A model generated the notes under the pieces. The model was given only the letters and a program-made list of their open reading frames with translations. It had not been told where the DNA came from and searched no databases. 29,037 bases of DNA, from the UHGV virus genome UHGV-0149439. One strand, 5' to 3'. Below, piece by piece: positions 1 through 14,279 of this stretch (position 1 is its first letter; each line of letters starts with the position of its first letter). A program made the position numbers and the translations under genes. This DNA comes from a virus.

Positions 1-49
1 CGCCGCGGATTGTATCTTCCTGGCATGACGGATCAATGTGTTTTAAGTA

Positions 50-289
50 TTAATGCCACGTCTTTTTGCTCAGGCTTGTTATAGCTGAAATCGCATGTGC
101 TGAATCATCAAAAAGCCGGGTCAGTACAGGAACCCACTGCCTGTTTTTGTACTCAAGCACCTGATGTCCAGGCAGGTCTTTGCTGATGATGGCAAATGTC
201 CTGAGTTCAGGCGTTGGAACAGGGAGTTCGGTGCCAGGCGGGAAATATATTCTTACCCTGGCAATAATCATGTTGTCCATGCTCATCAT
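50..289 (-). CDS. Hypothetical small protein (79 aa from ATG at 289; ORF track opens at GTG 304), directly downstream of the dinI-like gene
   Basis: ATG at 289-287 overlaps the dinI-like stop in an ATGA arrangement (translational coupling); no family recognised. Confidence 0.45.
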   Translation of the reverse strand: MMSMDNMIIARVRIYFPPGTELPVPTPELRTFAIISKDLPGHQVLEYKNRQWVPVLTRLFDDSAHAISAITSLSKKTWH

Positions 290-525
290 TCGTTCACCAG
301 CCACATATCGGCTTCTTCAAACATCTCTTCCAGCATACGGTTAAGTCGTTCTTTTTCGGTCTTTGTGCTGTCGCTGTTTAATGCGTTAGCCTGCATTGGC
401 TTAACTCTCACGTCGGCGTCGGGGAAGATCCGGTGTACGCGCTTTGTCAGCTCGTTAAGAATGATGTTTCTTGCGCCCGGTAGCCCCTCGACATTACGCT
501 TGTCATAAACCAGTTCAACGAACAT
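286..525 (-). CDS. dinI: DinI-family protein (79 aa)
   Basis: Internal Met of track ORF 286..732; translation MFVELVYDK...EEADMWLVNE matches recalled DinI length and C-terminal acidic W-x-V-x-E ending; perfect LexA box 19-38 bp upstream. Confidence 0.8.
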   Translation of the reverse strand: MFVELVYDKRNVEGLPGARNIILNELTKRVHRIFPDADVRVKPMQANALNSDSTKTEKERLNRMLEEMFEEADMWLVNE

Positions 526-543
526 AAAAGCACCCCGGAAAAT

Positions 544-563
544 TACTGTGATTGTATACAGTA
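544..563 (-). promoter_or_regulatory. LexA (SOS) box TACTGTGATTGTATACAGTA upstream of the dinI-like gene
   Basis: Exact CTGT-N8-ACAG core with TA flanks, matching the enterobacterial LexA consensus. Confidence 0.75.
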
Positions 564-567
564 TTTT

Positions 568-587
568 TACTGTAAAAATAAATAGTG
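568..587 (-). promoter_or_regulatory. Possible second, imperfect LexA-like box (CTGT-N8-ATAG)
   Basis: tactgtaaaaataaatagtg; one mismatch in the conserved 3' triplet. Confidence 0.3.
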
Positions 588-645
588 TCAAGGTGAGCGG
601 AGCGCGAAAGGGGGATGTGTTTTTGTTACCCTTAGTTACAAATAG

Positions 646-679
646 AAAAACCCCAGACCGTGAGATCTGGGGTTCTTTT
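646..679. terminator. Bidirectional intrinsic terminator-like hairpin
   Basis: 7-bp stem ccccaga/tctgggg (651-657 / 666-672) flanked by an A-run upstream and a T-rich run downstream. Confidence 0.5.
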
Positions 680-835
680 AAAGTGCACGTGCACTTCACG
701 TGTATATTTTTGTCTTTTCTCGGTCTGCGCACTGTCTGGTCAGTGTCCTTAAGTGGCTGTTTTTATTGCCGCTGTCCGGTTGCAGTCCTATCAAAAGTGC
801 TGGCGGGAGTTGAACCAGCGTCCGTAATCATTTAA

Positions 836-1615
836 CTATCTGTTTTTGTTGAAATCATGTTCATCTATAAAATCCGCGTAGCTTTTGCGTATCCTTTGCT
901 GTATCTGCGCAGTCTTACTATTTTTTGATACTTGGAACATTAAAGCGCCGCGATAAGTATTTTCGTAGGGTTGCTTTCCGTACTCGCGTAGATGATATTG
1001 GCTTGAGTAACTTATAGAAAATTTCTTTCCCTTTGCATCTGAGAAAGTGATTTTTAATGACGGGCCATCAACAATTGTGGGTATTTCACCATTCATAATA
1101 CGTAATGAATTTAATTCGTTTAGCAATATAATTAGAAAAACTGGAGGAAGGATAGTTCTGATTGGTTTTTTTTCTATATTTATGGGTAGCAGATAATTAT
1201 GGGAGTAATAATTTTCTAAGCTATATGGAATGGTTATTCCACCCCCGGATATTTTTATTGATTTATTGTTTGAGTTTTTTCGAGTTTCATACTTTAAATC
1301 AAAAATCTTTGAAATGGAATTTAATTTTTCTTCGGCTGGATATTCCCAAAATAGCTTTACATTTATGGCAGTGCCTAACCCTGAGTTAACTAACTCAGGT
1401 TTGATATCATCTATGGGTATTCTAGCTAGTGGCATGGCTGAATAATGATGCTCATTCATTGAAACTGTGAGCAAATCCAAATCATTAATTAATAATTGTG
1501 GTCTAATTGATTCCTTTCTTTGAACTACTGTTTGCCTAATTGCAAGGTATGCCGCAATTGCTGATAATGTACTAGCAATCAATCCACCGTATGTAACAAA
1601 ACTAGTGTCTGCCAT
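836..1615 (-). CDS. Hypothetical membrane-anchored protein (259 aa), low-GC cargo gene next to the integrase
   Basis: Long ORF with clearly lower GC than flanking genes (by eye, not computed); N-terminal hydrophobic helix (GGLIASTLSAIAAYLAI); no recognisable family. Confidence 0.7.
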   Translation of the reverse strand: MADTSFVTYGGLIASTLSAIAAYLAIRQTVVQRKESIRPQLLINDLDLLTVSMNEHHYSAMPLARIPIDDIKPELVNSGLGTAINVKLFWEYPAEEKLNSISKIFDLKYETRKNSNNKSIKISGGGITIPYSLENYYSHNYLLPINIEKKPIRTILPPVFLIILLNELNSLRIMNGEIPTIVDGPSLKITFSDAKGKKFSISYSSQYHLREYGKQPYENTYRGALMFQVSKNSKTAQIQQRIRKSYADFIDEHDFNKNR

Positions 1616-1623
1616 GTTGTAGT

Positions 1624-1650
1624 ATTCCTGCCTAAAAATCAGGCAGGAAT
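1624..1650 (-). promoter_or_regulatory. Perfect 10-bp-stem hairpin between the integrase stop and the 259-aa gene start, covering its Shine-Dalgarno
   Basis: attcctgcct / aggcaggaat arms with a 7-nt loop; start codon 8 nt beyond the stem on the mRNA; no U-tract. Confidence 0.4.
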
Positions 1651-1656
1651 TATTTG

Positions 1657-2832
1657 TCAGTTAGTTTTTTTATTCAAGTGGGTAACAGATGTATTGTTAT
1701 CGTATGCTTTAAGATACCTACCGTAATGTCGAAAAAGCATCTCTGGCCCCTTATGCCCCATTTGCCCCGCCAGCCAGAAAAGGTTAACTCCTCGACTGAT
1801 TAGGCGTGTGGCATATGTGTGACGGGTCTGATAGGGATTGCGGTACCTGATACCGGCTTTCCGTAGCGTTGGCACCCACGCTTTTTTCCTTATTGCATCC
1901 GCGCTGGCCCATGGCTTGTATGTCTTTGGATCCTCAAAGACACAGCCATCTTTCATGAAAGTAAAGGGCTTTTGATCGTTAAGTGCGATTATCGCTTCCT
2001 CAGTTAATTCAACTTTGCGAGTTCCCGCCTTAGTTTTCGTACCTTTTGTCACGCCTGAAACACTGGCGCTCTGTACATGCGCCGTCTTCTCAATGAAATC
2101 AATATCCCTCCAGCGGAGTGCGCATAGTTCCGAGCTGCGAAGTCCTGTCTGGATCGCAAATCTGAATAAGTTCTTCCACTGCTTATTGCCTGTTGATGTT
2201 AACAGCGCGTTCACCTCAGCTGGTGACAGCGGATCAACCACATAACTACTTTCTGCCTCTGATTTATCACTTTGGTACCGTGAAGCTGTCACCAGTGATA
2301 CAGGGTTAATCTGAAGCACACCATCCGTCACCGCCTCATCCAAAGCTGAACGCAGGAATGACAGTTGGTTTCGGATAGTCTTTAATGTTGTTTTCTGGTT
2401 CTGGATCCATGTCTTCAGCGCGGCCGGCGTCAACTCACTTGCAGGAAAAATATGAAGTGATGACAGCGCGCTTCGGCATTTCTTATATCCACCAATTGTT
2501 GAAGGGGATAGTTTTCTCGTTTCACAGATAACCAGATACTCGTCCAGGTACATCTTCACCGTTTTGCCTGCGGCAGCGTTGCCGAAAATTTTTAACCGGG
2601 TAGAACGGGGAAAGTATTCTGCATAAACAAATGTCCCCCTCTCGATCTTGTTATGGATTTCGCCGAGTGTGCGCTCGGCGTATTTGATGTTTTTAGGAGT
2701 TACGTCCAGATTAGAAAGGGGCTCACGGCATTTAACCCCTTTATAAGTGAAAGTAATATTGATGGTTTCGCCGTTGCGGTGTTTCCTGATGGTTACGCCG
2801 CGCGGGAGCTTAGGCGATTCTGTCGTGCCCAT
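1657..2832 (-). CDS. int: Tyrosine site-specific integrase (lambda Int family), 391 aa
   Basis: Size and C-terminal catalytic region typical of tyrosine recombinases (R...H-x-x-R...Y arrangement, HTYATRL... context); GAGG Shine-Dalgarno 8 nt upstream; excisionase immediately upstream. Confidence 0.93.
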   Translation of the reverse strand: MGTTESPKLPRGVTIRKHRNGETINITFTYKGVKCREPLSNLDVTPKNIKYAERTLGEIHNKIERGTFVYAEYFPRSTRLKIFGNAAAGKTVKMYLDEYLVICETRKLSPSTIGGYKKCRSALSSLHIFPASELTPAALKTWIQNQKTTLKTIRNQLSFLRSALDEAVTDGVLQINPVSLVTASRYQSDKSEAESSYVVDPLSPAEVNALLTSTGNKQWKNLFRFAIQTGLRSSELCALRWRDIDFIEKTAHVQSASVSGVTKGTKTKAGTRKVELTEEAIIALNDQKPFTFMKDGCVFEDPKTYKPWASADAIRKKAWVPTLRKAGIRYRNPYQTRHTYATRLISRGVNLFWLAGQMGHKGPEMLFRHYGRYLKAYDNNTSVTHLNKKTN

Positions 2833-3011
2833 TTTGCAACCTCATTAAGATCAATCCATCTTTCCTTAACGCCGTCGACCTTTAGCACCTGAACCCCTTC
2901 ACGCCATACTCCACGTTGCACACGTTTGTTGATGGCATCCGGGGTTTCGCCAGTCTCTTTGCAATAAGTTGAGATGGGAACACAATCGAGGCTCAGCATA
3001 TATTTCTCCAT
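2793..3011 (-). CDS. xis: Excisionase-like small DNA-binding protein (72 aa; alternative start at 2999 has a better GGAG Shine-Dalgarno)
   Basis: Small basic protein directly upstream of and overlapping int (40 nt), the classic xis position. Confidence 0.65.
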   Translation of the reverse strand: MEKYMLSLDCVPISTYCKETGETPDAINKRVQRGVWREGVQVLKVDGVKERWIDLNEVAKWARQNRLSSRAA

Positions 3012-3062
3012 ACAATCCCGGCTGCACCCGGTAGTTTGATATTGTTTATTAGCTGGTTATTG

Positions 3063-3614
3063 TTAGTTGGTTTTCTTTAGTCCAAAGTAAAGTCCTGCGG
3101 CTATGCTTATTATGCCTGCAGCTAGAACACCAATAATCCAATAAAATAATGTTATAAATCGTTCTAACTGTTTGTCTGAGTAATCACTCATAACTTTTAA
3201 TGATGTGCTCAATGACTCCATATCTTTCTTCATGAGAGGTAAAGCCATTGCTTTTTCAGGACTATTTCCAAGTATATTATTAAGCGTGGATATCTTTTTC
3301 TGTATGTCATCAACTTTTACTTCCAACGCTTCTATTCGTATATTATCTGGGGTAAGGGTTGAAGTATTTTTTAAGGCACTTAACGTGTTTCTTACCTGAA
3401 ATATCTCATCCCTATAGGTGCTTATTTCGTTCATGAGATGATCTGTATCTATTTTTTTATCATAAGATGTAGGTAATGAAACATTTACTATTGAAGTGGC
3501 TTTATCTTTTATTTCTAAGGTCAAAGGAATGAGTATCGATCCCAAAGCGACCAGCATAAGAATAGGGGATAGTATTGCTATACTCTTTGCTAATGCGTTA
3601 CTTGTAAATGACAT
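3063..3614 (-). CDS. Hypothetical two-TM coiled-coil membrane protein (183 aa), low-GC
   Basis: Hydrophobic helices at both N- and C-termini with a charged heptad-like middle; GAGGGA Shine-Dalgarno before the ATG; TTGCAA -35-like element at 3651-3656. Confidence 0.7.
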   Translation of the reverse strand: MSFTSNALAKSIAILSPILMLVALGSILIPLTLEIKDKATSIVNVSLPTSYDKKIDTDHLMNEISTYRDEIFQVRNTLSALKNTSTLTPDNIRIEALEVKVDDIQKKISTLNNILGNSPEKAMALPLMKKDMESLSTSLKVMSDYSDKQLERFITLFYWIIGVLAAGIISIAAGLYFGLKKTN

Positions 3615-3801
3615 GAGTCCCTCTTCATAGTATTGTGTAGTACGTTTTTATTGCAACTTACTGTTATGGATAGTTTTTTGTTAAAGTCATTGAGAGATTA
3701 GCATGTTTTAGCGTTAATTCATTGCTTTAATGAGGCCAAAACTAATATTCCAAGCCCTGTCTCATTTGCTTAATGACACTATAGGCCAACAGACAATTTA
3801 A

Positions 3802-3900
3802 TCATGGCAGCGTCCAGTGTCGATTTGATTTATTCATAAACATACTCGTATCCAGTAAGCCAAGAAAATCTGGCACTACGGTCATGCGGTCATTACTCAT
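3802..3900 (-). CDS. Candidate small ORF (32 aa, MSNDRMTVVPDFLGLLDTSMFMNKSNRHWTLP), below the ORF-track size cut-off
   Basis: ATG preceded by GAGGG with a 7-nt spacer; same orientation as the leftward operon. Confidence 0.3.
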   Translation of the reverse strand: MSNDRMTVVPDFLGLLDTSMFMNKSNRHWTLP

Positions 3901-4209
3901 GGTTTTACCCTCGTTATGGCGGCTGCCACCGCCGAACTTTCTCCATACACAACAGAGAAGGGCATCTGCATTAGTCGGCGGCTTGCAGAGACCGCTTTCT
4001 TTTTGCCCGGGTGGATTGGGTTATGAGCCCGTCGCCCGGTGATGCCCTTTTCTGTTGTGCCCTGAAAAAGGCTGGCGGTTACCGGACAAGTGGGAAAACA
4101 CCGGGCCGCCAGAACAGGGAGTTACTTGTTATTGCTTTAGCCTGCTTTTAACCACATCAGGCGCGGTGGTATCCTTCTAAGTCGCTACAACCACGAAGGA
4201 ATTTTTTTT

Positions 4210-4449
4210 ATGAGCAATGTTACTTATCTCAACCATGCCAGGCTCGATGCCATTGAGTTGGCTATATCAAGGCTGGCTATTGCTATTACAGAGGCTGAAG
4301 GACCACATACTAAAGAGCTTGAAAGTTCTATCGCCCATTTCCGCGCGCTATTTGAAAAGCCTGATATCACTGAAAAAGAGCGCGAAACCTACCTCAGGAC
4401 GATAAGGTTGTTGGATCCATTAAATAGCGACCCTACCGAGCCGTTCTGA
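4210..4449 (+). CDS. Hypothetical protein (79 aa)
   Basis: ATG with AAGGA Shine-Dalgarno 9 nt upstream; its 3' end overlaps the convergent ORF 4420..4725 by 30 nt. Confidence 0.4.
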   Translation: MSNVTYLNHARLDAIELAISRLAIAITEAEGPHTKELESSIAHFRALFEKPDITEKERETYLRTIRLLDPLNSDPTEPF

Positions 4450-4725
4450 ATCGAGGCGTGCCGCTCTTTCCCTTCGCTCTAAAATCGCCTCAACAATTTC
4501 GACTCCATTGAGGCGCTTCTTTCCATTAATGTCCTGCTGGACCTCTTCTAATGCTGTTTGCGCAAGCTGAATGCGCGATTCAGTCCCGGAATTTGGCTCG
4601 AGCTGTTGAACTCGCTTAGCATCCTCCAGCAGTAGAGCAATGATGTGCTTCAGTTCGTTTGCGTCCACCGTGAACTCCTTTGAAATTTTAAGTGTTAGCG
4701 AATCATCCGGTTCTTCATATGCCAC
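4420..4725 (-). CDS. Hypothetical protein (101 aa), first ORF downstream of the left operator (lambda N position) but not N-like
   Basis: GTG start without a clear Shine-Dalgarno; charged helical composition; position immediately left of the OL-like repeats. Confidence 0.35.
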   Translation of the reverse strand: MAYEEPDDSLTLKISKEFTVDANELKHIIALLLEDAKRVQQLEPNSGTESRIQLAQTALEEVQQDINGKKRLNGVEIVEAILERRERAARLDSERLGRVAI

Positions 4726-4783
4726 CGACGGCTACTTCGTGGGCGTCCTGCCTGTTCGCTATGGAGTAGACAATAAAATTAAA

Positions 4784-4821
4784 TTGCGAATAACGCAAGT
4801 AAATAATTGCGAATTGCGCAA
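4784..4821. promoter_or_regulatory. Left operator candidate: two 15-bp sites TTGCGaataaCGCAA (4784-4798) and TTGCGaattgCGCAA (4807-4821)
   Basis: Perfect inverted half-sites TTGCG/CGCAA with 5-bp spacers, centres 23 bp apart; related sites recur between cI and cro. Confidence 0.5.
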
Positions 4822-4833
4822 TATTAGGTGCAT

Positions 4834-4858
4834 AAAAAAACCGCCATAAAGGCGGTTT
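4834..4858 (-). terminator. Intrinsic terminator downstream of cI
   Basis: Hairpin ccgcc-ataaa-ggcgg followed on the minus strand by a 7-nt U-tract. Confidence 0.6.
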
Positions 4859-4876
4859 CAACATTGATATGTAGCG

Positions 4877-5569
4877 TCAGGCGTGACGTTTGAATGATTG
4901 AGATTGGCTTATCATTACTTTCCCAAAAATGTAAAAACGGTGTTCGTTAGTCTTGTCCACGGACCATTCTCTATATTTTGGGTTATCCGATATCACCAAC
5001 AACTTATCAGGTATCATCTGTAATCGTTTGACGTAAATTTTATCATCAAAACCAAATACATAGATTCCATCACCATCGAACTCATGAATAGAGATATCAA
5101 CGAAGAGAAGATCACCAGGCTCGATTGTCTCAGCCATACTGTCGCCTCGAACGTTGATTACCTTTACTTGATCTGCCGTTCTTCCGCCGAACATCGCTAG
5201 CGCACGTTCATTGTTGTATTCGATTGACCTGATGACATCAATGATGTCGCTGCCTTGAATAAAGCCGCCACCAGCACTGGCACTAACATCAAGAATCTCC
5301 ACTCTAAACACAGATCCATCTCCAGAATGTGGATTACTACCACTGTATTCACATACAGTAGTTTTATTTCCACCTGGAGTAAATAGATCAGCAACGCTAA
5401 CGCCTAAAGCTTGAGCATATTTGCTAAGTGATTGTTCAGTAAATGACTTCTGCTTGCCAGTTTCTACACGCGAGATGTTAGCTCCGTCGACACCAACGGC
5501 TTCAGCAAGATCAGCGATTTTTAGACCCTTCGCAGTGCGAAGTTCTCTTATGCGGTTTCCTATGTTCAT
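4877..5569 (-). CDS. cI: CI-type prophage repressor: N-terminal HTH, C-terminal S24 LexA-like autopeptidase (230 aa)
   Basis: N-terminal HTH (IADLAEAVGVDGANISRVETGK); C-terminal region with GDSM (catalytic Ser) and a downstream Lys; divergent from cro. Confidence 0.9.
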   Translation of the reverse strand: MNIGNRIRELRTAKGLKIADLAEAVGVDGANISRVETGKQKSFTEQSLSKYAQALGVSVADLFTPGGNKTTVCEYSGSNPHSGDGSVFRVEILDVSASAGGGFIQGSDIIDVIRSIEYNNERALAMFGGRTADQVKVINVRGDSMAETIEPGDLLFVDISIHEFDGDGIYVFGFDDKIYVKRLQMIPDKLLVISDNPKYREWSVDKTNEHRFYIFGKVMISQSQSFKRHA

Positions 5570-5589
5570 GCGTCTATTACATGTTTTTT

Positions 5590-5652
5590 TTGCGTGATGT
5601 GCAAAGCAACTTGCGCAAGTCGTATGTTCTAATTAATATGCGTTTTACGCAA
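5590..5652. promoter_or_regulatory. Right operator/promoter region between cI and cro
   Basis: Operator-like sites TTGCGtgatgTGCAA (5590-5604), palindrome TTGCGCAA (5611-5618), ATGCGttttaCGCAA (5638-5652); candidate cro promoter -35 TTGCGC (5611-5616), 17-bp spacer, -10 TAATAT (5634-5639). Confidence 0.5.
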
Positions 5653-5666
5653 TTAAAGGAGGGTAT

Positions 5667-5912
5667 ATGCAATCACCGTTACGAATCTTGCGTAAATCGC
5701 AAGGTATGACTCTTTCCTATGTAGCAAAAGGGGTTGATATCGACCCGGGAAATCTAAGTCGGATAGAGCGAGGGCAGCAAATTGCTTCCCTAGATATTGC
5801 TGAACGTCTAGTCCGTTTCTTCGCGGGAAAAATCAATGAGCTAGAAATCCTTTATCCACACCGCTATTCGAACTGTACAGGCGCGAGTACAGACATAAAA
5901 CCACAGGAATAA
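5667..5912 (+). CDS. cro: Cro-like HTH regulator (81 aa)
   Basis: AGGAGG Shine-Dalgarno; HTH segment MTLSYVAKGVDIDPGNLSRIERG; divergent from cI. Confidence 0.8.
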   Translation: MQSPLRILRKSQGMTLSYVAKGVDIDPGNLSRIERGQQIASLDIAERLVRFFAGKINELEILYPHRYSNCTGASTDIKPQE

Positions 5913-5922
5913 GGGGTTAACC

Positions 5923-6474
5923 GTGGGTAACGAACCAATCTGGAAAGTCGAACGTCAGCCTAGTTGGCTGGTGGTAGCGATTAAAAAAACGATTACCGAT
6001 CTGCCTGGTGGATATTCTGAGGCTGCGGAATGGTTGGGCGTGACAGAGAACGCATTGTTTAACCGCCTTCGTGTGGACGGGGATCAGATCTTCCCTATGG
6101 GATGGGCGATGGTGCTACAGAAAGCCGCCGGTGTTAGCTACATAGCAGATGCGTTTTCTCGTCAAACAGATAACGGGATTCATATCCCTGGTGCAGCACC
6201 AGAAACAGAGAACGAAGAAATTGGCTTAAAGCTGGCTGAGCTGGTGGGCAGGCTTGGGGATCTGGTCAACGCATACCGTCGATACATCGATGATGGTGTA
6301 GTTGATAAAGGGGAGTGGGACAGTCTGAATGAAATCGCCTACCAGTTCCGGGTAACGCTTATGACGTTCCTGAACCTGATTTCACGAGTTTATTGTCTTC
6401 CTGAAAAGAGTGACGCCCGCGAGTGTGCAGCTCCGGGCGCCTTGGCGAACAAATCTTCGAGTATGGAGAAATAA
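5923..6474 (+). CDS. CII-like phage regulatory protein (183 aa); family assignment tentative
   Basis: Position immediately after cro; AAGGGG Shine-Dalgarno then GTG; HTH-like segment AAEWLGVTENALFNRLR. Confidence 0.45.
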   Translation: MGNEPIWKVERQPSWLVVAIKKTITDLPGGYSEAAEWLGVTENALFNRLRVDGDQIFPMGWAMVLQKAAGVSYIADAFSRQTDNGIHIPGAAPETENEEIGLKLAELVGRLGDLVNAYRRYIDDGVVDKGEWDSLNEIAYQFRVTLMTFLNLISRVYCLPEKSDARECAAPGALANKSSSMEK

Positions 6475-13427: not shown

Positions 13428-14279
13428 ATGAAAATAGATAATCCCGAAAATCCACTTGAACGAAACGATTTTACGATGGATGACTTCCATCACTACTTAA
13501 GGGAGTTTGATAAAGCTGTATGTGAAGCGAATGCTGTAAGTCAGGGGGTTGGTGTGCGAATGGCTGAGGCTTTTAAAGGGTGGTCTACATACATTTTTTC
13601 ACGAATCTGCATTCATGCTTCAATAATGATTTCCAACGTACCAAGATCAAGATGGGCTAAGCGGGATTATGACTTTTGGGATTTTTCGGCGATTGCACCT
13701 CATGTAAGAGCGATTCTGGAAGCTGAGTTATTGTTTATGTATTTATCTGAGAATCCAGATTCAACTGAGGAGTGGTCAGCAAAGTTGAATGTCATGCACA
13801 TGAATGATTGTGTAAAGAGAATTGAGTTATTTACATCTAGTGATAATACGAAAGCATTGGATTTTTATCATGAACAAAAAGATATAATAACTGAGAGACT
13901 TAATAACAACCCTGTTTTTTTATCCCTTGAACAAGGAACCAGAAAACGTTGCTTGACTGGAAAAGCGCTTATGATTCCAAATCGAGATGAGTTATTGGTT
14001 AAACTGGGAAAAGATCCAAAGTCATTTAAAATAATGTTCGATTTTTTATCTCATTATACGCATATACTACCTATGTCATATTATAAAATGGAGCCAAACG
14101 GAAGGGGAACTGGTTGTTTTAACAACTATGACTTTGGCTATATGATTATGGGGATGATTATTTGTACTGAATCCTTGACTAAGTGTACAGATAGATTAGT
14201 AGAACTTTTTCCTGATGTTAGACGGTTGCGAAAAGGAACTAAATCAAAATTCACGTTAGGGCCTAAACCAACAAAATAA
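13428..14279 (+). CDS. Hypothetical protein (283 aa), low-GC cargo gene between the Q-like gene and the lysis cassette
   Basis: Long ORF with markedly lower GC than neighbours (by eye); no TM segment or family recognised. Confidence 0.75.
   Translation: MKIDNPENPLERNDFTMDDFHHYLREFDKAVCEANAVSQGVGVRMAEAFKGWSTYIFSRICIHASIMISNVPRSRWAKRDYDFWDFSAIAPHVRAILEAELLFMYLSENPDSTEEWSAKLNVMHMNDCVKRIELFTSSDNTKALDFYHEQKDIITERLNNNPVFLSLEQGTRKRCLTGKALMIPNRDELLVKLGKDPKSFKIMFDFLSHYTHILPMSYYKMEPNGRGTGCFNNYDFGYMIMGMIICTESLTKCTDRLVELFPDVRRLRKGTKSKFTLGPKPTK

Follow-up and report, generated by a model that had tools for sequence, protein, structure and literature searches.

Does the small membrane protein encoded beside the excisionase and integrase genes of the virus genome UHGV-0149439 exclude superinfecting phages? 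The window, by which we mean the whole 29,037-nt stretch that was analysed, carries its gene on the minus strand. An earlier note on this DNA had proposed that the gene may be an analogue of sieB, which encodes the membrane exclusion protein of lambda and P22. We find that the gene is a moderately interesting, uncharacterised member of a family rather than an established exclusion gene, and that its one homology signal leads to a holin component rather than to any exclusion protein.

The gene and its predicted protein

The ORF at 3063–3614 on the minus strand is a real gene under purifying selection. The features of the gene and of its product are as follows.

3063–3614, minus strand: gene for the 183-aa two-TM membrane protein, stop codon included; supported by the ORF, its homologues and dN/dS
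3619–3623, minus strand: Shine-Dalgarno sequence GAGGG, 5 nt upstream of the ATG, visible in the sequence itself
3516–3584, minus strand: TM1, about residues 11–33 (Kyte-Doolittle 19-mer maxima 2.46; AF2 helix 5–40)
3210–3275, minus strand: signature 1, residues 114–135, ILGNSPEKAMALPLMKKDMESL, from conservation over 144 family members
3129–3170, minus strand: signature 2, residues 149–162, QLERFITLFYWIIG, a juxtamembrane helix entering TM2 (pLDDT 94–96)
3078–3158, minus strand: TM2, about residues 153–179, then the basic tail KKTN, from hydrophobicity

The start codon is the ATG at 3614–3612, with GAGGG read at 3623–3619. At 33.7% GC, where xis-int have 47.3% and the window 51.2%, the ORF is indeed the low-GC gene for a 183-aa protein that had been described. 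The TM helices placed at both ends of the protein also stand: hydrophobic 19-mers are confined to residues ~5–37 and ~150–180. The charged coiled-coil middle holds in part. The 120 residues between the hydrophobic ends are 30% charged, and this region is predicted to be all-helical (H57–84, H90–117 and H124–181); the coiled coil, however, comes from helix prediction and weak matches to coiled-coil proteins, not from a dedicated predictor.

A search of 5.8 billion proteins returned 19 clusters of homologues at 46–99% identity, all of them 180–188 aa long, all named 'hypothetical', and originating from Citrobacter, Enterobacter, Escherichia and Klebsiella. The exact 183-aa protein is present on 59 contigs, mainly of Citrobacter. 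Conservation among the close homologues is high over the C-terminal two-thirds, whereas the first ~60 residues vary, TM1 and the linker 34–56 being the fastest-evolving part of the protein. Codon alignments of homologue pairs with unsaturated dS gave dN/dS values of 0.08 (L002/L030), 0.11 (L005/L024) and 0.14 (L001/L002), with no sign of positive selection and with dN in codons 1–60 ~3.5-fold that of the remaining codons. Conservation and these dN/dS values together rule out a chance ORF.

Searched with the window protein, Pfam, PHROGs, PADLOC and NCBIfam gave sub-threshold coiled-coil noise only, and none of 50,697 phage records was matched by tblastn. Sequence profile matches in the PDB (P22 gp26, GCN4 fusions, Lpp) are to generic, often trimeric coiled coils and were not taken as homology. 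Structure searches returned nothing informative, and Rfam over 1–6000 found nothing within or near the gene. The literature on the family, on xis-adjacent hotspots and on integron defence cassettes does not describe the protein.

A mobile cassette in a variable slot before xis

The surroundings of the gene are made up of the following elements.

2793–3011, minus strand: excisionase (xis), TorI-like, phrog_2917 (E 3.7e-42), the next gene downstream on the same strand
1657–2832, minus strand: tyrosine integrase (int), Arm-DNA-bind_2 plus Phage_integrase
3018–3031, minus strand: conserved 14-nt hairpin CCGGGTGCAGCCGG at the xis junction, on the xis side and outside the cassette, with no T-run after it
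3035–3828: low-GC (34.0%) cassette of the gene plus 214 nt of upstream non-coding DNA, delimited by the edges of similarity to E. coli prophages
3829–4173: remnant of the yfdP 5' end and upstream intergenic region, 91–95% identical to E. coli CPS-53/KplE1-like prophages

The gene thus lies just upstream of xis and int, as had been noted, these two coming next on its strand. Similarity to E. coli prophages ends at 3034, just beyond the xis start, and comes back at 3829, in the yfdP 5' region. In E. coli R18, where the same TorI-like xis and int are found, yfdP-yfdQ-yfdR and a 288-aa gene (hyp288) take the place of the gene. This comparison and the edges of similarity imply that a 0.8-kb cassette (3035–3828) replaced ~2.9 kb of early-left genes, and the yfdP remnant implies that the early-left operon was truncated on arrival of the cassette. 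Megablast of the cassette region against complete E. coli genomes found no match, and the E. coli variant of the gene is absent from 5,426 complete E. coli genomes.

All close homologues examined lie directly upstream of xis, yet the xis genes beside them belong to three unrelated families (TorI-like, DUF4224 and lambda Exc), and the integrases also differ. Their upstream neighbours vary as well, being an IbrA/IbrB-like pair of PAPS-reductase and ParB genes, unknown genes, or nothing. In Enterobacter prophages (L002–L004 and L030), the homologue is preceded by the ParB-like and PAPS-reductase pair (3683–5937 in L002 coordinates), which we take to resemble IbrB/IbrA. The gap between the pair and the homologue is 63 nt, suggesting that they may be co-transcribed. 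Most related phages with the same xis are without the gene.

The conserved part of this arrangement is the hairpin CCGGGTGCAGCCGG. The gap between the gene and xis measures 36–64 nt, and the hairpin is always present in it, followed by the xis Shine-Dalgarno sequence, usually as N2–4 AGTGGAG right after the hairpin. It was found in L001–L015, L024–L030, L008 and more than 120 IMG/VR contigs (L056 onward), and it stands 5' of xis also in prophages without the gene (L008). In the 119 IMG/VR contigs analysed, five unrelated xis families follow it and at least 19 gene families precede it. A hairpin that is shared by so many xis and upstream gene families marks the slot as a variable cargo position bounded by a conserved junction; the hairpin itself might serve as a recombination junction or module boundary, or act as an RNA element that controls xis. 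The gene is a rare occupant of this slot directly before xis, and its accessory, horizontally mobile and stand-alone character is established. The earlier note's reading of it as a membrane-protein gene of the leftward operon is supported to this extent: it encodes a membrane protein and is accessory to the early-left/xis region.

Transcription signals

The gene had also been credited with promoter-like elements of its own. A consensus promoter scan returned no minus-strand site between 3615 and 3790, and over 2700–5000 the number of sites found (5) equals that expected from shuffled sequence (5.0). The one candidate in the span covered by the earlier note, TTGCAA (3656–3651) and TACTAT (3632–3627) with an 18-nt spacer, matches at 8 of 12 positions and would place the transcript start within the Shine-Dalgarno sequence. 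With sites no commoner than chance and a sole candidate of this kind, the claim is not borne out.

Downstream, no terminator was found between the gene and xis, where the 36–64-nt gap holds only the hairpin. Lacking a T-run, the hairpin is not an intrinsic terminator, and a constitutive transcript of the gene would run into xis. This read-through arrangement fits co-transcription with xis on induction better than it fits a classical exclusion gene expressed in the lysogen.

Other features of the window

Several further elements of the window were recorded. Between cI and the cassette lie two small convergent ORFs, at 4210–4449 (plus strand) and 4420–4725 (minus strand), which overlap by 30 nt. 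One of them encodes 79 aa and matches phrog_28250 (E 1.2e-17); the other encodes 101 aa, matches phrog_30817 (E 1.5e-16) and stands where a related prophage has a 'ClpX C4-type zinc finger' gene. The plus-strand ORF at 4210–4449 breaks up a simple leftward operon.

A low-GC (34.1%) cargo ORF for a 259-aa protein with a hydrophobic N-terminus lies at 836–1615 on the minus strand, between int and the prophage end. It matches phrog_7259, of unknown function (E 1.6e-48), and has no match in Pfam, PADLOC or NCBIfam. In close Citrobacter relatives, the same slot holds DarT-DarG (L009–L011 and L026) or other cargo (L029), and this slot has the look of a hotspot for defence-type cargo. At ~795–830 on the minus strand there is a tRNA/tmRNA-like 3' fragment, GGACGCTGGTTCAACTCCCGCCAGCAC; Rfam gave a weak tmRNA match at 802–880 (E 0.051) and ARAGORN found no complete gene. 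This fragment is probably the duplicated att core, which would mark the prophage's left end. Finally, a 283-aa ORF at 13428–14279 (plus strand), in a low-GC stretch (13.0–14.5 kb, 36–43% GC) between the late regulator region and the lysis genes, is possibly a further moron.

A family defined by a two-part signature

A family profile built from the close homologues was scored against 1.84 billion representatives, at least 707 of which matched at E ≤ 1e-3 and 63 at ≤ 1e-10. The members are mostly 170–210 aa long and align end to end with the profile. Exactly two TM segments are present in 153 of 168 sequences. The loop between them measures 125 ± 8 aa, and the C-tail, with about 2.5 K/R, has a length of about 10 aa. 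The window protein, with a loop of 123 aa, fits this layout of a TM, a helical loop of ~125 aa and a second TM followed by a short basic tail.

Conservation is concentrated in a two-part signature. The first part reads [IL]xx[SN]PEKAL[AS][LIV]PL[LM]R[KR]D[IL][DE]xL; the second, [EQ][ILV][DE]R[VI]YD[LQ]xKW[FIL][IL]G, follows 13 residues later and enters TM2. The spacing is fixed in 130 of 167 sequences. Over 144 members, P119, P126 and D131 are at least 90% conserved, as are the W and G of the second part, in which the frequencies are R 83%, Y 80%, W 94% and G 90% at fixed spacing from the first. Membership was defined by the motif P-E-K-A-[LM]-x2-P-[LM]-[LM]-[RK]-[KR]-D, then [DE]-R-x-[YI]-x3-W-x2-G at fixed spacing, and the window protein carries both halves, PEKAMALPLMKKD at 119–131 and ERFITLFYWIIG at 151–162.

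To find loci, a hand-made degenerate DNA pattern for the first motif was used. All 13 of the IMG/VR contigs that it picked out hold true members, as do 10 of 19 stretches from species genomes, where ~8 random hits are expected; these come from Acidobacteriota, Sphingomonas, Pseudomonas, Dyella and Vibrio. Neither Pfam nor NCBIfam has a family covering these two-TM proteins. By its profile and signature, the protein belongs to a previously unannotated family that is spread across phyla.

Relationship to SieB, SieA and RexB

The suggested relationship to SieB was examined with profiles that detect their own families. Pfam SieB (PF14163) scores lambda SieB at 1e-29 and P22 SieB at 4.3e-29, and Pfam RexB (PF15968) scores lambda RexB at 8.5e-92; neither matches the window protein even at E ≤ 1. 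Compared by hhalign, the family profile reaches 0.2% with lambda SieB and 1.5% with P22 SieA. The HMM comparison thus speaks against any relationship to SieB, and a SieB homologue is rejected at the sensitivity of profile-profile comparison.

Gene position leads to the same view. The earlier note had placed sieB in the leftward operon of lambda and P22. In the records of both phages, however, sieB (34482–35036 in lambda, 29758–30336 in P22) is annotated on the strand opposite the pL operon, beside N/24, and is therefore not carried by the leftward transcript; the P22 record also gives sieB its own annotated promoter and an internal start for esc. The window gene, on the other hand, runs in the direction of xis and directly adjoins it, so that the positional analogy, too, is a loose one. 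What the two share is that each encodes a small membrane protein of a temperate phage from the early-left region; they differ in having no sequence or profile similarity, in the opposite strand of sieB next to N/24, and in the mapped promoter of P22 sieB.

Could the protein nevertheless be a divergent homologue of SieB, SieA or RexB? Only a similar size (183 aa vs 184–192 aa), the membrane character and the general early-left location would favour it. We consider it highly improbable, given that the Pfam SieB and RexB models detect their controls and not the target, that the hhalign values are as low as those above, and that strand, position and promoter arrangement all differ. By analogy, SieB may still serve as one possible functional logic, not as a homologue.

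Distant likeness to XhlA and gp24.1

A different relationship emerged when each of 144 members was scanned against Pfam: 39 of them match PF10779 (XhlA) at E ≤ 0.01, the best at 2.4e-8, with every other Pfam family matching at most 8. In each of the members that were inspected individually, the match lay in the last ~45 residues, against model positions 21–67. The PHROGs agree, with 27 members matching phrog_689 'holin' (best 4e-8) and 12 matching phrog_1193 'hemolysin'. In proteins that consist of TM helices and coiled coils, composition can inflate such E-values. The likeness is visible at family level only: the window protein itself has no match to PF10779, and the gathering score of 34.7 bits is not reached in the member scores seen (31.0 bits for P0138).

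For a profile-profile comparison, we aligned eight Bacillus phage proteins of the XhlA/gp24.1 type, each encoded beside a holin or endolysin. Against this alignment, hhalign of the family gave 72.6% (E 3.2e-5) over 69 columns, pairing residues 90–179 of the target with XhlA 13–81 and superposing the invariant Trp residues; with respect to XhlA, the PEKAL..PLLRKD block comes out as an insertion of 21 aa. With the shallower profile of close homologues the value was 36.5%, and against a lone gp24.1 sequence it came to 2%, too weak a signal. The part of the protein that runs from helix 3 through TM2 is thus probably a distant relative of XhlA/gp24.1, and XhlA and the 'holin' PHROGs, rather than any exclusion protein, are the only homology signal.

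Each of the holin components XhlA and SPP1 gp24.1 has one TM, at its C-terminus; on their own they are harmless, and in combination with a two-TM partner holin they become lethal (PMC6316719 section 3.6; PMC5589764). The proteins from Bacillus phages and PBSX resemble the target in the coiled-coil helix, the juxtamembrane helix with its invariant Trp and the C-terminal TM, and the aligned region covers nearly the whole length of XhlA. They differ in being about 80–100 aa long with one TM; the target, at 183 aa, has an extra N-terminal TM and helix as well as the 21-aa insertion. XhlA genes, moreover, sit beside holin or endolysin genes, whereas the target, found in Gram-negative bacteria, adjoins xis and never a holin or endolysin. 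Two lysis roles were discarded, that of a lysis-cassette holin, as no member was found in a lysis cassette at the loci examined, and that of a spanin, for want of an outer-membrane partner and by its wrong location.

Topology, nuclease fusions and distant contexts

Some distant relatives carry N-terminal extensions before TM1, and these are nuclease-type domains: HNH (1.7e-13; P0081), GIY-YIG (3.5e-9 and 3.3e-6; P0088 and P0096) and HsdR-N/PD-(D/E)xK-type (HSDR_N_2; 2.8e-7 and 5.9e-6, P0072 and P0145). Three types of nuclease domain have thus been fused independently to the same two-TM module, and several of the resulting proteins are integron cassettes. The window protein itself has no nuclease domain by Pfam.

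The fusions bear on topology. Since nuclease domains work in the cytoplasm, an N-terminal nuclease puts the N-terminus inside, which leaves the 125-aa helical segment in the periplasm and the basic tail inside; the K/R counts agree modestly with this orientation (5.3 inside vs 4.3 outside). For the window protein we infer, from the sequences of these relatives, a short cytoplasmic N-terminus, TM1, ~120 periplasmic residues in three helices, TM2 and a short, basic cytoplasmic tail.

The distant members occur in varied settings. In Rahnella, the member sits in the early-right nin region, with a DNA methylase on one side and the Q antiterminator on the other. The Agarivorans and Vibrio members belong to arrays of integron cassettes, and in the Agarivorans locus an attC-like site immediately precedes the gene. 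One GIY-YIG-fused member is the first cassette beside an integron integrase, and another adjoins DUF5677 and a Trypco1-trypsin-AAA_5 set. On Pseudomonas-like viral contigs, the gene is near C5 methylases or int/xis. Among 112 neighbouring ORFs from 16 distant loci, no partner gene recurs; the neighbours are phage genes, an AIPR protein, HicAB and DUF7662, and also housekeeping genes.

A membrane-tethered nuclease has a precedent in SNIPE. This GIY-YIG protein, anchored in the membrane, cuts phage DNA while it is being injected; its single TM is N-terminal, its DUF4041 is cytoplasmic and its nuclease is C-terminal (10.1101/2025.11.03.685801). The nuclease-fused relatives P0088, P0096, P0081 and P0072 would likewise tether a nuclease to the inner membrane. 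In the family, however, the nuclease is N-terminal and is followed by a TM, a periplasmic coiled coil and a second TM. SNIPE and HK97 gp15 together are a precedent for cutting or blocking of entering DNA at the membrane (10.1101/2025.11.03.685801).

Function

The topology, expression and function of the protein are all matters that we infer. For function, our best guess, held tentatively and at somewhat short of an even chance, is that the protein would be a single-gene anti-phage factor acting at the inner membrane. An exclusion or defence role is plausible in view of the variable slot, the integron cassettes and the nuclease-fused relatives in conflict-system neighbourhoods. The periplasmic helical module would be placed where it could meet the DNA-entry machinery or the holin of a superinfecting phage. 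It might block genome entry, as HK97 gp15, P22 SieA and T4 Imm do, or it might permeabilise the membrane at an untimely moment, with an abortive outcome like that of SieB or RexB; the nuclease-bearing relatives would cut DNA at the membrane.

P22 SieA and T4 Imm are small phage-encoded inner-membrane proteins that act alone to block DNA entry. The window protein resembles these two and HK97 gp15 in being a small inner-membrane phage protein whose periplasm-facing part could meet the injection machinery. It differs from SieA by the hhalign value of 1.5%, and to our knowledge none of the three has the two-TM-plus-coiled-coil layout. Counting against the anti-phage reading is that no similarity to a known exclusion or defence protein was found (Pfam SieB and RexB, hhalign SieA, PADLOC), PADLOC-DB 2.0.0 (library of 2023) giving only weak SMC-like coiled-coil matches (LmuB, PbeC and JetC). 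The same holds for the lack of a promoter above chance, for the apparent read-through into xis, and for the several distant members that lie among housekeeping genes.

Having raised the possibility of an anti-phage factor, we would note two other readings. The protein could be an XhlA-like holin cofactor or regulator, made early with xis after induction and tuning the timing of permeabilisation or lysis together with the phage's own holin. XhlA and the 'holin' PHROGs are, after all, its sole homology signal; the gene is co-oriented with xis at tight spacing and with no terminator after it; the Rahnella relative lies in the early-right nin region; and the SPP1 holin system is partly made early (PMC6316719). 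On the other side, the gene was never found in a lysis cassette at the loci examined, and the window phage has, at about 14.7–16.6 kb, what looks like a complete lysis block of its own, which matches that of Citrobacter phage Chris1. The gene is missing from most related phages that share this xis, and the integron-cassette and chromosomal copies have no phage to serve. We regard this role in the phage's own lysis as unlikely.

A generic accessory envelope protein without an anti-phage role, such as a membrane scaffold, a stress or envelope-remodelling factor or a host-physiology moron, seems to us slightly less unlikely than that. It would be in keeping with a family that spans Proteobacteria and Acidobacteriota, with copies that sit beside housekeeping genes and show no mobile-element signature, and with the failure of any defence model to match. 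It is harder to square with the sparse and patchy distribution, the E. coli variant being absent from all 5,426 complete E. coli genomes and the cassette region unmatched there at megablast sensitivity. The recurrence of the family in prophage variable slots and integron cassettes, and its independent fusions to three nuclease classes, likewise speak against it.

If the protein is instead an anti-phage factor at the inner membrane, a wider proposal can be made for the whole family, one that we consider doubtful. The two-TM XhlA-like module might be a widespread, holin-derived periplasmic sensor or blocker of genome entry, which alone would serve as an exclusion or abortive factor and, fused to a nuclease, as an injection-sensing cutter. 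In the fused form (HNH, GIY-YIG or PD-(D/E)xK), injection would be detected from the periplasm and the DNA would be cut as it emerges on the cytoplasmic side.

Regardless of function, the analysis defines a sizeable unannotated family, which has no Pfam, NCBIfam or PADLOC model and is seen by the PHROGs only as weak holin/XhlA-type matches in some members. It also identifies the slot directly before xis in enterobacterial lambdoid prophages as a variable cargo site with a conserved 14-nt hairpin as its boundary. Were the protein anti-phage, it would be a compact one-gene defence at the membrane level, with an unusual origin in a holin component and a modular nuclease-bearing form, and it would provide a handle on the least understood step of infection, the passage of the genome through the inner membrane.
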